Assembly (NCBI GenBank): GCA_934183255.1
Contig: CAKPSD010000001.1
Span: 321,351-385,350 of the forward strand
Direction: 5' to 3'
Origin: an uncultured Bacilli bacterium
GTDB lineage: Bacteria; Bacillota_I; Bacilli_A; RFN20; DUOF01
Length of the DNA: 64,000 bases
The notes beneath the pieces were generated by a model. The model had not been told where the DNA came from and did no database searches. It saw nothing but the letters and a program-made list of their open reading frames with translations. Below are positions 28,783 to 33,661 of this stretch, one piece after another. How positions within the stretch are numbered: the stretch's first letter is position 1; every line of letters starts with the position of its first letter. The position numbers and the translations under genes are program-made.

Positions 28783-30102
28783 TTATCTTCTATAACCTTT
28801 ATTATTCTTAAATGTTCCCTTACTTCTACCTTTATTATTTCTAGTATATCCTTTCATTTTTAAAATGTTTTGGATACTTTGTCCACTAGTTTCATTATAT
28901 TCTCCCATTGCTAAAAAATGAGTAGAGCTTATTTCATCTTTATTTTTTCCAAAGAATTCAAATTCAATAGAATCCAAATCAAAAGTTGGATCAAAATAAT
29001 ATGCTTTATTTTTTAAATATATCTTACTTATTTGATGATTACTTAAAACGGTTCTTCTAAAATCTACTTGTTTAGCACTACAATAGGCAGGAAGCGCTAC
29101 TACATCTACAAGTGAACATAAATAGTTAAATAAACCTGATACACCAACGCATACACCTTTTTTATAATATAAAGTAGTAAATGATGATCTAATTACTTTA
29201 TTATATTTCTCTCTTGAATCTTGCAAAGGTGAGTTTTCGTTCATCTTTAATCCTTCATAATCATAAGAGATATGATTACATATCCATTTATAAATATCAC
29301 TTACTTTATCCATCTTTTCTTCATCATATTTACAACAATCATCGACTATTTCTTTAGCTAAGTTATATGCCACTAACATATTATAGTCATTTATATCACT
29401 ACGATATCCTGGACATAATTCTGAATAATTAAAACATCTTATATCACTAGTTATATTCTTCTTATAATAATCATTTAGTTTATCAAAATATATTGTAGGT
29501 AAATATATTTCTCTTTTAGTAGTATTTTTATTTTTTATAAAATATTTAGCAAGTGTATCTATATCTTCTACTTTCTTTAATCTATAACATCCAGCTAAAT
29601 CCATACTTATACTTTTAACATTATTTAATGAAAATAAATTTTTAACTTCCTTTAAATAAACACATTCCGTTAATTCTATATCTTTTAAATTTTTAAAATA
29701 CTTTAAATCTATAGTTTTAATATTTCTTTGCCTAGATAAATTTAAAGATTTTAAATTTTTTAATTGATATATATATTTTAAATCTTCTTCTTTTATTTGA
29801 TTTTTAGTATATTCTCCATAATAATACATAAATACTTTTTGCATACTAAAGTCTTCATTGCTTTTATTTTTTCTATATATTTCTTTATACTCAAAAATAT
29901 TAGTAGAATCTTCTTTTCCCACTATTTCTAACATTTCTAGATTAATTAGTTTTTCTATTCCTTTTAAAGTATCTATATCATCTATTCTTAAATAAGTTAT
30001 TTTACTTAAAAAAGCATCATCAAAAACATTAGAAGTATTCTTAACTACTAACATATTATTAATAGAATCAAATAATTTAATATTTTCCTCTTTTTTAAGC
30101 AT
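28783..30102 (-). CDS. leucine-rich-repeat protein with C-terminal transglutaminase-like (cysteine protease fold) domain
   Basis: N-terminal LRR-like L..L.L repeats. C-terminal YYKKGVCVGVSGLFNYLCS places the Cys-containing core in a transglutaminase-like context. Probable start MLKKEEN at 30102 (AGGTGA SD). Confidence 0.5.
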   Translation of the reverse strand: MLKKEENIKLFDSINNMLVVKNTSNVFDDAFLSKITYLRIDDIDTLKGIEKLINLEMLEIVGKEDSTNIFEYKEIYRKNKSNEDFSMQKVFMYYYGEYTKNQIKEEDLKYIYQLKNLKSLNLSRQRNIKTIDLKYFKNLKDIELTECVYLKEVKNLFSLNNVKSISMDLAGCYRLKKVEDIDTLAKYFIKNKNTTKREIYLPTIYFDKLNDYYKKNITSDIRCFNYSELCPGYRSDINDYNMLVAYNLAKEIVDDCCKYDEEKMDKVSDIYKWICNHISYDYEGLKMNENSPLQDSREKYNKVIRSSFTTLYYKKGVCVGVSGLFNYLCSLVDVVALPAYCSAKQVDFRRTVLSNHQISKIYLKNKAYYFDPTFDLDSIEFEFFGKNKDEISSTHFLAMGEYNETSGQSIQNILKMKGYTRNNKGRSKGTFKNNKGYRR

Positions 30103-30166
30103 ACTTATCACCTACTTAAATTATAATAACATTTGCTTTATAAAACAAAAGGATTTAGCAATATTG

Positions 30167-31243
30167 TTAAATCCTTTTACTTTTTATTATGTTATTTTCT
30201 TTATTATTTACTTTATTTCTAATATATATAAGTACTTGCTCATATAAGTTTTCTACATATTTTTCCTGCTCTAATTCATCTTCATATAAATAGTTATCTA
30301 ATCCAGGAGCGCTATTAACTTCTAATATTTTATACTCTTTGTTACTAGGATCACTAATTGAAGAGGTAATTATATCTATCCCACACATATCTAAATTTAA
30401 TGATTTTGCTACTGCTACTACCATATTTTTAAAGAAAGGAGTTATTTTATTTGTATAATCAACTGATGTCCCTCCAAGAGATAAATTAGCTATATTTTGT
30501 AAATTTAAAGTTTTACCTTCTTCTAACACACTATCTAATTTATATCCTTTATCTTTAATACACTTTAATGTTCTTTCATCATTTTTATCTACTTTTTTAT
30601 CTCTATCATTTTCTATAAATTCTTTAACTTTTAAGTCTAATAATTGTTCAATTGTATGAACACCATCACCTACTATATGAAAAGGTACTCTTTTATAAGC
30701 TTGAATAACTTTATCTCCTAAAACTACTACTCTAAAATCATTACCTTCAACGTATTCTTGAATAATAAATGTTCTTGATTTACTTTGTAAAGATATTTTT
30801 ATTGCTTCGCTTGCTTCATTATAATTATTAACTTTTGTAATTCCTATTCCTTGTGATAAAGTAGATGGCTTGATAATTAAAGGATAATTAAAACCATTTT
30901 TTCCTACTTCTTTAAAAAAATCTAACATTGGTTTATATAAGGAATCGTTCTTTTTAGTAGTTTCTCTAGTATAATTTATAGATTTAGGAACCATAAATCC
31001 AATTCTTTCTAAAAATGATGTACACATATCCTTATTACTACATATCTTTATACTACCTACTGGATTTATATTAAAAGGAGAATCCCATACTGCGAAAGTT
31101 CCCTTTTCAAACATTAATATTGCACATGATCCACTATAAGTATTGTTTAATAAGTATGGTATGTTGTATTTAGTAGCTAATTTAATTATTACTGGAAGAG
31201 AAAAACTTCCTTTATTTATCTTTTCTAATATATCCATACTCAT
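30167..31243 (-). CDS. ATP-grasp family ligase (RimK/Ddl-like; possibly YheC/D-type)
   Basis: Central ATP-grasp blocks (LIIKPSTLSQGIGITKV, IIQEYVEGNDFRVVVLGDKV, EVNSAPG). Confidence 0.65.
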   Translation of the reverse strand: MSMDILEKINKGSFSLPVIIKLATKYNIPYLLNNTYSGSCAILMFEKGTFAVWDSPFNINPVGSIKICSNKDMCTSFLERIGFMVPKSINYTRETTKKNDSLYKPMLDFFKEVGKNGFNYPLIIKPSTLSQGIGITKVNNYNEASEAIKISLQSKSRTFIIQEYVEGNDFRVVVLGDKVIQAYKRVPFHIVGDGVHTIEQLLDLKVKEFIENDRDKKVDKNDERTLKCIKDKGYKLDSVLEEGKTLNLQNIANLSLGGTSVDYTNKITPFFKNMVVAVAKSLNLDMCGIDIITSSISDPSNKEYKILEVNSAPGLDNYLYEDELEQEKYVENLYEQVLIYIRNKVNNKENNIIKSKRI

Positions 31244-32235: not shown

Positions 32236-32281
32236 CTACAAGCACCTCCAACTAGTAAAAATTGTAACACTTATAAAGAAA

Positions 32282-33661
32282 TTATTCAATTACTAAATCT
32301 TTTAGTGCATCTATATTTATTTTCTTTTTAAGCTTTTTATATATACATATATAACAAATCATATGAATAGTAGAAGTAACTATCCAAGACAAAGGATAAG
32401 AATAATATAATACTTGTAATGAATGATTTGCTCTAAAAACAGTATGGATCCACACTATTCTAAGAACACATATCCCTAAAACAGAAACTATCATTGGCGT
32501 AATAGAGTATCCTAATCCTCTAAGACCACCTACTAATACATCTGTTATTCCACATGTAAAATAAGTTAAGCCAATTATAGTTAATCTAATAAGTCCATAT
32601 TTTATAGAATCATCTCCATTAGTATATAACCCTAGTAAAGGTTTGCCTAGTATTACAGCAATTCCTCCTACTACCATGCCTACTAATGTTACAAGAAGTA
32701 AACTACTTAATAAAACTTTTTTACAATTTTTAATCTTTTTAGCTCCATAGTTCTGGCTAGTAAAAGTTAAACACGCTTGATAAAAAGCATTCATTGATGA
32801 ATAGATAAAGTTTCCTATATTAGCTGAAGCTGCATTGCCTGCTACAACTGAAGTGGATTTAAAGGAATTTACAGCTTTTTGAATTGATATATTACTAATT
32901 GCAAATAAAGAATTTTGAATTCCTGCTGGTAAACCTATTAAGACTATTTCTCCTAATGATTTAGAGTCTATTTTTAATTTTTTTAAATTTAAATGTATAT
33001 ATCCCTCTGTTTTTATCAAACAACGTATTACTAATACAGCAGATATTATTTGAGATATAACAGTAGCTATAGCAACTCCTGCAACATCCATCTTACACAC
33101 TATTACTAAAAATAAATTTAATAAAGCATTAACTACTCCTGCAATAAACAAATAAATTAAAGGCTTTCTAGTTTCTCCTATTGCTCTTAATATACTAGCG
33201 CCAAAATTATATACAAGATTAAAAATAGAACCTAAAAAATAAATTATTAAATATGTGCTTGCTTTACCAATTATATCAGAAGGTGTATCCATTTTTTCTA
33301 AACAGAATCTAGAAGCAAACACTCCAAATAAAGTAACAATAACGCCTACTATCAAACTAAATAATATTGAAGTATGAACTAATTTTTCACACTTTTCTTT
33401 ATCTTGTTTTCCAATAGACCTTGCTACAGCTACATTCGCGCCTACTGAAAATCCTATAAATAAGTTTACTATTAAACTAACTAGTGATGTGGTGGATCCT
33501 ACTGCTGCTAAAGAATCATCTCCTGCAAATTTACCAACTACTATTAAATCACACGCATTAAATAATAATTGCAAGATACTACTTAACATTACGGGAATAG
33601 CAAAAACGATAATTTTTTTCATTAAATTACCATTTAACATATCCACTTCTTTATTATTCAT
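32282..33661 (-). CDS. MATE family efflux transporter
   Basis: 459 aa, 12 predicted TM helices, MATE-like N-terminus (NLMKKIIVFAIPVMLSSILQLLFNACDLIVVGKF). Confidence 0.8.
   Translation of the reverse strand: MNNKEVDMLNGNLMKKIIVFAIPVMLSSILQLLFNACDLIVVGKFAGDDSLAAVGSTTSLVSLIVNLFIGFSVGANVAVARSIGKQDKEKCEKLVHTSILFSLIVGVIVTLFGVFASRFCLEKMDTPSDIIGKASTYLIIYFLGSIFNLVYNFGASILRAIGETRKPLIYLFIAGVVNALLNLFLVIVCKMDVAGVAIATVISQIISAVLVIRCLIKTEGYIHLNLKKLKIDSKSLGEIVLIGLPAGIQNSLFAISNISIQKAVNSFKSTSVVAGNAASANIGNFIYSSMNAFYQACLTFTSQNYGAKKIKNCKKVLLSSLLLVTLVGMVVGGIAVILGKPLLGLYTNGDDSIKYGLIRLTIIGLTYFTCGITDVLVGGLRGLGYSITPMIVSVLGICVLRIVWIHTVFRANHSLQVLYYSYPLSWIVTSTIHMICYICIYKKLKKKINIDALKDLVIE

Follow-up and report, generated by a model that had tools for sequence, protein, structure and literature searches.

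A putative self-contained cassette of two adjacent ATP-grasp ligase genes at a variable chromosomal site in an uncultured lineage of gut Bacilli

The present analysis concerns four adjacent genes in a 64,000-nucleotide stretch of DNA from an uncultured Bacilli bacterium (contig CAKPSD010000001.1, positions 321,351 to 385,350), here called the window, and centers on two of them, which encode the ATP-grasp ligases designated grasp1 and grasp2. In the direction of transcription the genes code for a MATE efflux transporter (32282-33661, 459 amino acids (aa)), grasp1 (31243-32235, 330 aa, with the Shine-Dalgarno (SD) sequence GGAGGTG and the WKHNLGQG motif), grasp2 (30167-31243, 358 aa), and a protein with leucine-rich repeats (LRR) and a transglutaminase (TGase)-like domain. 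The open reading frame (ORF) of the latter spans 28783-30111, and its likely start, ATG 30102, which was also chosen by gene callers on identical contigs, gives a product of 439 aa (28783..30102). All four ORFs, described in an earlier reading of the sequence (the original prediction), are present on the minus strand, and the overlap of stop and start codons reported for the two ligase genes was confirmed as one nucleotide (nt) shared by the grasp1 stop and the grasp2 start (TAATG). The ligases, encoded by the first and the second gene of the proposed cassette, are distant paralogues with 24% identity over 218 aa (E 3e-11). The transporter is assigned to the MATE efflux family by Pfam MatE (168.7 bits in two stretches) and NCBIfam matE (TIGR00797; 184.8 bits against the cut-off of 147.4). 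The remainder of the window consists of ordinary metabolic and transport genes. Guanine-cytosine (GC) content is about 25% across the window, and that of the cassette is the same (~0.25), so a foreign origin was rejected as far as composition is concerned. About 35 orthologues of the LRR/TGase protein (66-97% identity) were found, all in metagenome-assembled genomes (MAGs) named "Bacilli bacterium" from uncultured organisms, several of them faecal or from the human gut, and a contig of a Hadza MAG is 99% identical. Because the orthologue records are of this kind, the window is read as chromosomal DNA from an uncultured lineage of low-GC gut Bacilli.

The original prediction treated the genes as an operon beginning with the MATE gene, and the transcription signals speak against this. 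A promoter-like site on the minus strand 5' of grasp1 (32261..32289), overlapping the end of the MATE gene, comprises TTGAAT, a 17 nt spacer and an extended -10 element TG-TACAAT (TGTTACAAT), with 9/12 consensus matches plus TG; it was obtained by a consensus scan and is a prediction from consensus match only. At the end of grasp2 an intrinsic-terminator-like hairpin on the same strand (30142..30183) has a 14-pair stem of -13.1 kcal/mol (z -4.33; 0/200 shuffles equally stable) and is followed by a U-run (UUUUGUUUU). The LRR/TGase gene possesses its own TATAAT at 30120-30125 and SD sequence AGGTGA at 30113-30108, and the 60 nt 5' of its start (TATAAT and TAGGTGAT) are conserved across species whichever gene sits upstream. 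The site before grasp1, the terminator after grasp2 and the conserved TATAAT/SD region together argue for separate transcription units of the MATE gene, the ligase pair and the LRR/TGase gene. Upstream of the MATE gene another terminator-like hairpin (33851..33866, minus strand, -11.6 kcal/mol, z -2.5) ends a ThyX-like gene and separates the two.

The ligase pair is a recurrent unit. Among the loci fetched for comparison, numbered here with the prefix L, the order grasp1-then-grasp2 was found in at least 13 distinct ones (the window, L003, L006/7, L028/29, L032, L045, L047, L048, L050, L056/57, L065, L066, and L075) and the reversed order once (L116), and seven loci (L027, L033, L034, L038, L039, L040, and L055) contain grasp1-grasp2 fusions of about 650 aa in the same order. 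An exhaustive phmmer search with one fusion against 1.84 billion representatives gave 509 relatives at E < 1e-30 and four full-length fusion clusters. Separately, the homologues of grasp2 are few (about 100 in a word search) and those of grasp1 more numerous (more than 200 proteins and 479 metagenome loci). In two sister species, L008 and L009, both ligase genes are missing together. A fixed gene order, fusion into one protein, coupled translation and loss as a unit are classical indications that two proteins act together. Across the loci the pair has no conserved companion, whether a small ORF or a third gene. In two Lachnospiraceae-type loci the gene directly after the pair encodes a conserved, N-terminally membrane-anchored protein of 200-218 aa for which no family match was obtained (L006 8015-8617; L028 6980-7636). 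In L028 the gene of this protein is followed by a PADLOC PDC-S34 (HAD-like) gene and then by a relaxase gene. In L047 (2657-3946) the pair precedes a 430-aa AIG2/GGACT (gamma-glutamyl cyclotransferase-like) protein and an Eco57I-type restriction-modification (RM) enzyme, and in L048 (2833-3234) a circularly permuted ATP-grasp gene interrupted by the contig end.

Comparison with sister species separates the pair from its neighbours. The flanks are conserved in L003, L008, L009, and L010, with YhhN-DAGK at one end and, at the opposite end, HAD together with a 73-aa gene. Between these flanks L003 has all four genes, adjacent and co-oriented as in the window; L008 and L009 have the MATE gene and then, within about 45-65 nt, the LRR/TGase gene, with no ligase genes; and in L010 the MATE and ligase genes are all absent, and the place before the LRR/TGase gene is taken by two small, unrelated genes. 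Since presence and absence differ between conserved flanks, the stretch from DAGK to the LRR/TGase gene is regarded as a variable slot. In the neighbour-joining tree of the LRR/TGase protein the pair-bearing species fall into three subclades and one pair-less species is the sister of a pair-bearing one; the common ancestor probably had the ligase pair at this site, and the two genes have since disappeared more than once, each time cleanly and together. In about 19 other loci with the pair or the fusion, no homologue of MATE or LRR/TGase is present. The MATE gene is therefore best described as an upstream neighbour and not an obligate partner of the cassette, and the LRR/TGase gene as a separately transcribed, lineage-specific neighbour independent of it, so that the four-gene "cluster" appears to be a juxtaposition in the variable slot. 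The reading as a single system fails because of the grasp2 terminator, the separate promoter/SD region of the LRR/TGase gene and the presence/absence patterns. The four-gene peptide-tagging or natural-product system of the original prediction is not supported, as the neighbours persist without ligases (L008, L009, L010) and the pair occurs elsewhere without MATE or TGase genes.

Both ligases are predicted to be catalytically intact ATP-grasp amide ligases. In both families the ATP-binding Lys, the Gly-rich loop, Arg, and the Asp and Glu-x-Asn Mg2+ ligands are invariant (in grasp2 K125, G132, R171, D290, E308, and N310), which places them within the ATP-grasp superfamily. In profile comparisons grasp2 is closest to CphA1 (4e-47) and GshAB (3e-42, PDB 3ln7), while the grasp1 profile finds CphA1 at 6e-10 and its nearest folds are ArgX/LysX/RimK. 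PDB 7wac is matched by grasp2 at 1e-32. Membership in the curated families was nevertheless not supported. Cyanophycin synthetase (TIGR02068, PRK14016) was rejected, as grasp2 scores 172 bits over model positions 164-448 and grasp1 50 bits against the cut-off of 850, and neither ligase has a Mur-ligase Pfam match, the domains of the tested neighbours likewise being of other kinds. GshAB was rejected as well, since grasp2 matches only its C-terminal ATP-grasp part (132 bits, positions 485-737, equivalog cut-off 425); the match to N-acetylglutaminylglutamine synthetase is 123 bits against 569. At the domain level both ligases exceed the Pfam RimK gathering threshold of 21 (58.1 and 36.8 bits), but rimK_fam (TIGR00768) gives 81.8 and 48.2 bits against 143.4, and equivalog PRK10446 gives 38 against 331. 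D-Ala-D-Ala ligase (Ddl, TIGR01205) gives 45 and 28 bits against 245.65. For YheC/YheD (PF14398, a 255-position model), suggested originally as a spore-coat alternative, grasp1 has 23.2 bits over residues 98-130 only (33 residues) against the cut-off of 26.8, and grasp2 has no match. By the curated cut-offs the ligases are thus neither housekeeping Ddl or RimK enzymes nor YheC/D proteins, and since the cut-offs of CphA, GshAB, rimK_fam, Ddl, and YheC/D are all missed by a wide margin, grasp1 and grasp2 are considered new subfamilies inside the known ATP-grasp superfamily. Two further assignments were rejected: that to graspetide or microviridin-type ligases of ribosomally synthesized and post-translationally modified peptides, which are defined by an adjacent precursor gene and a ligase of MdnB/C or PsnB type, and that to the ATP-grasp/alpha-E/TGase tagging systems, as the ligases have no match to the CP_ATPgrasp models (PF04174/PF14403) and no alpha-E match was found in the window proteins tested.

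The nearest characterized systems share only parts of this arrangement. The G domains of CphA1 and CphA2 are the best sequence relatives of both ligase profiles and share the ATP-grasp core, and the alignment with CphA1 continues unbroken through the GDG...TI..L region, which we take to be its omega-subdomain. However, CphA combines the ATP-grasp part with an N domain and a Mur-ligase-like M domain, neither of which is present in the window ligases, where two ATP-grasp proteins or an ATP-grasp/ATP-grasp fusion are found instead. GshAB and N-acetylglutaminylglutamine synthetase offer an analogy for two-step synthesis of small peptides by fused or adjacent ligases, but here there is no GshA-type gamma-glutamylcysteine ligase and no GNAT domain, and both steps would be of the ATP-grasp type. 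From the group of RimK, LysX, ArgX, CofF, and MptN the window ligases differ in being below all curated cut-offs, with no LysW-like carrier or S6-type target evident here, and the sequence matches of the ligase profile favour CphA and GshAB instead. With the ATP-grasp/alpha-E/transglutaminase-like peptide-tagging operons, described by Iyer et al. 2009 as cited in PMC3495828, and with the tubulin tyrosine ligase (TTL)/vasohibin pair, the window shares an ATP-grasp gene adjoining a transglutaminase-like cysteine peptidase with intact triad. The ligase of those operons is circularly permuted and accompanied by alpha-E, whereas the window ligases are not permuted, there is no alpha-E gene, and the TGase-like gene is transcribed separately and retained without ligases. 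The analogy with tagging operons is reasonable as a way of thinking, but it fails as membership.

The combination of LRR and a TGase-like domain given in the original prediction is confirmed. The protein is composed of an internalin-like LRR domain at the N-terminus and a domain of the transglutaminase-like cysteine peptidase/transamidase type, with both the LRR solenoid and the peptidase superfamily identified, and it contains the motif GVCVGVSGLFNYLCS. The catalytic triad is complete by alignment, and Cys318, His356 (in NHQIS), and Asp371 (in YYFDPT) are invariant across 19 aligned homologues, two of which are only about 30% identical. No signal peptide was found in the protein, which is predicted to be cytoplasmic. 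Streptococcus pyogenes TglA (PDB 9crn), 3isr, and LapG (4fgo) are only 12% identical to it, and it differs from TglA and LapG-type peptidases in the N-terminal internalin-like LRR domain and the lack of a signal peptide; a literature search found no paper describing S. pyogenes TglA. The basic C-terminal tail (28783-28840), which ends ...KGYRR in the window protein, is conserved and disordered, and all close orthologues end in ...KGxRR or RGGR whether the ligase pair is present or absent. Modification of this tail by the ligases was considered and rejected, because species that lack the pair, where orthologues have 66-73% identity, conserve the tail just as well. No ligase genes adjoin the distant homologues (L012-L022), which also lack a common gene context. 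One of them, a Christensenella MAG (L012 4496-7538), has two tandem LRR/TGase paralogues of about 485 aa each, and the others are 500-870 aa long, likewise with no signal peptides.

According to the interpretation preferred here, which is considered reasonably probable, the variable slot holds three independent units, and the ligases form a self-contained two-gene cassette whose products work together in two successive ligations. The cassette would consist of the promoter-like site, grasp1, the translationally coupled grasp2, and the terminator. Relatives of the CphA, GshAB, and RimK type form an acyl-phosphate on a terminal carboxylate in an ATP-dependent manner, and this is then attacked by the amine of an amino acid; as this chemistry is common to the relatives, two consecutive amide ligations are inferred. 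Each ligase would activate a carboxylate as acyl-phosphate with ATP and Mg2+ and join to it the amino group of an amino acid, and two such steps in succession would lead to a short peptide-like product, which could be a dipeptide, a tripeptide or a metabolite with a carboxylate to which a few amino acids are attached. Two ATP-dependent ligations with a peptide-like product are probably the function of the pair, its chemistry, sequence of action and product being deduced by analogy, whereas the gene anatomy, the intact catalytic residues, the recurrence of the pair and its fusion, and the independence of the neighbours are demonstrated at the level of sequence comparison. A ligase of the L-amino-acid ligase type (BacD, RizA) is a possible candidate function. 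If the ligases do act in sequence, they define a family of modest size, with about 500 clusters (50% identity, E < 1e-30) and no characterized member. Its members would be ATP-grasp-only peptide builders of a non-ribosomal, non-Mur kind, dispersed among gut Firmicutes by mobile elements and found also in a lineage of gut Bacilli that is uncultured and poorly known. The case is also a caution for annotation, as a suggestive neighbourhood of ligase, transglutaminase and exporter dissolved on comparison of sister genomes.

Several observations weigh against this interpretation. At least three subclades of the window lineage share the synteny of all four genes, and therefore a lineage-specific functional link, for example export of the product by the MATE transporter, is possible. 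Promoter-like matches are not enriched in the AT-rich region (66 found against 72 expected), and no terminator separates grasp1 from the MATE gene, which would allow read-through. The L004/L005 lineage keeps an intact grasp2 beside a 59-aa C-terminal remnant of grasp1 (L004 6819-6998), so grasp2 may work alone there, or the copy is decaying. Many grasp1 homologues are also solitary and stand in housekeeping synteny, where the neighbours, read by eye, are threonine synthase/dGTPase, superoxide dismutase/amidase/UvrA, and ValS/spoIIA-operon genes. The grasp2 cluster of the L004 lineage has 49 member sequences, and in L032 (8001-8990), which is related to L004/L005, both ligase genes are intact and are flanked by an FtsJ/TlyA-like gene and greA, not far from the S10 ribosomal operon.

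One of the alternatives draws on a sister clade of grasp2-like genes that occur singly. Its members have 150-180 bits to grasp2 and 430-550 bits among themselves, and some of them come from records named Patescibacteria. In four of five independent loci these genes adjoin folate genes: in L030 (6001-8302) a CofE/F420_ligase-like gene and dihydrofolate reductase (DHFR), in L112 (4206-5999) a CofE-like gene, in L114 (2338-6005) the gene of an FTCD_C fusion protein, and in L118 (3422-5749) 5-formyl-tetrahydrofolate cyclo-ligase (5-FCL) and a CofE-like gene. CofF and MptN add an alpha-linked glutamate to F420 or methanopterin, and in the synthesis of the F420 tail CofE works with the ATP-grasp enzyme CofF, which the arrangement of the sister clade parallels. 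Alpha-linked glutamates have been reported in bacterial folates, and to our knowledge no gene has been assigned to them. The sister clade is thus a candidate folate-tail ligase and, as a lead only, a candidate source of these glutamates, the gene linkage making the lead concrete and testable. A gene upstream of valS in L089, considered as a possible folC, proved to be DUF5716.

Extension of this idea to the window, where the ligases would lengthen the glutamyl tail of a folate-type cofactor in the CofF/MptN manner and the cassette would serve folate-dependent thymidylate synthesis, has a small chance of being correct. Besides the sister clade and the fact that CofE homologues are proven replacements of FolC (PMC1971073; PMC4161248), it is favoured by other loci, as in L066 a canonical ThyX gene overlaps the pair and in L028/29 dCMP deaminase precedes it, by the ThyX-like gene upstream of MATE in the window with thymidine kinase 5 kb away, and by weak NCBIfam matches to MptN and CofF. 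But the folate-linked clade belongs to a separate orthologous group, no CofE-like, 5-FCL, or DHFR gene was detected in the window by phmmer, L003 lacks the ThyX-like gene at this position, folate genes are missing from most pair loci, sister species can do without the pair, and the substrate specificity of ATP-grasp enzymes changes easily. The originally proposed single system, in which the ligases build a peptide, the TGase-like enzyme processes it and the MATE transporter exports it, or in which a protein tag is added and removed as by tubulin tyrosine ligase and vasohibin, is judged unlikely. The adjacency and co-orientation in the window and L003, the tree, which suggests that the arrangement is ancestral in the lineage, the prediction that TGase-like peptidases reverse ATP-grasp peptide tags (PMC3495828), the AIG2/GGACT protein and the circularly permuted ATP-grasp gene after the pair in L047 and L048, and the conserved basic tail are consistent with it; they are outweighed by the persistence of the LRR/TGase gene, with the same tail and its own promoter/SD region, in pair-less species, by the strong terminator between grasp2 and this gene, by the other pair and fusion loci, which have neither neighbour, and by the lack of both alpha-E and circular permutation.

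Rather less probable still is that the pair is mobile conflict or defence cargo which makes a peptide-like signal or toxin or modifies a target under attack by phage or competitors; the paired or fused module would then be an undescribed conflict system of defence islands, sometimes with a small membrane protein, and the window copy would be chromosomally settled. The 80 neighbour proteins examined with Pfam outside the window lineage do include HTH_3 (6), phage integrase (3), IstB_IS21 (2), MobA/MobL, a Thoeris ThsA/ThsB pair, TIR_2, Eco57I/MmeI-type RM, SNF2, and RHS, the PADLOC candidates PDC-M62 and PDC-S34 adjoin the pair in other loci, and the membrane-anchored protein recurs in the two Lachnospiraceae-type loci. 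This is guilt by association only: neither the ligases nor MATE nor LRR/TGase matched a PADLOC model, a weak RimK-like match was all that PHROGs yielded, a phage origin was rejected as no grasp1 relative was found among IMG/VR viral contigs, the window cassette is surrounded by ordinary chromosomal genes and has no defence genes in its vicinity, no third partner is conserved across loci, and a literature search found no paper linking ATP-grasp pairs to defence islands. A minimal cyanophycin-like polymerase, with one ligase extending the backbone and the other adding side chains of a storage or capsule polyamide, is very improbable; the CphA1/CphA2 G domains as best solved relatives, the contiguous alignment over the presumed omega-subdomain and the resemblance of the fusion to a multi-domain synthetase point to it, and the missing N and M domains, the scores of 172 and 50 bits against 850, the grasp1 fold, which is closer to RimK/LysX, and the lack of a cyanophycinase-like gene among the annotated neighbours point away. 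Ordinary Ddl or RimK enzymes, or YheC/YheD spore-coat proteins with a coat transglutaminase, are scarcely credible, because the Pfam RimK matches and the faint YheC/D match in grasp1 are set against the curated cut-offs, by which this explanation is largely refuted, and the pair is patchy within its own lineage. Confirmation of either the folate-tail ligase or a small-molecule synthase of defence islands would raise the value of the finding.

With regard to the Thoeris genes, the pooled neighbour scan contained one ThsA_Macro and one ThsB_TIR match, the locus of origin not being given by the scan; the Thoeris pair was placed in L038 because two ORFs just upstream of the fusion gene there (2558-5613, 7986-9947) look TIR-like by eye.

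Other features of the window were also inspected. The original prediction found no short precursor ORF with a good SD sequence in the flanks, in agreement with the present result that no credible precursor peptide is present, and it mentioned a hydrophobic ORF of 43 aa. This ORF exists (33690..33821, minus strand), but a role as precursor peptide was rejected, as by tblastn it matches the interior of the TspO_MBR genes that stand at this position in the relatives L003, L008, and L009, and it is a relic of a TspO gene. The divergent ThyX-like gene (33865-35076, minus strand, 403 aa) is found at this site only in the window species, with TspO and other genes instead in L003. Only the N-terminal half of its product matches Pfam Thy1 (56 bits), the NCBIfam thyX score is 34.6 against the cut-off of 87.9, and no PDB sequence match was found; the protein contains the sequence QRHRTL, an RHR motif, and its C-terminus is rich in Cys (CTFCDFKCTSPCGF). 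Four window ORFs, 7837-9855 (672 aa), 47903-49078 (391 aa), 55643-56668 (341 aa), and 59341-62046 (901 aa), have no Pfam match at E < 1e-5. At 1550-2635 on the minus strand a radical SAM protein with SPASM domain (361 aa) is encoded, which is possibly a peptide- or protein-modifying maturase.

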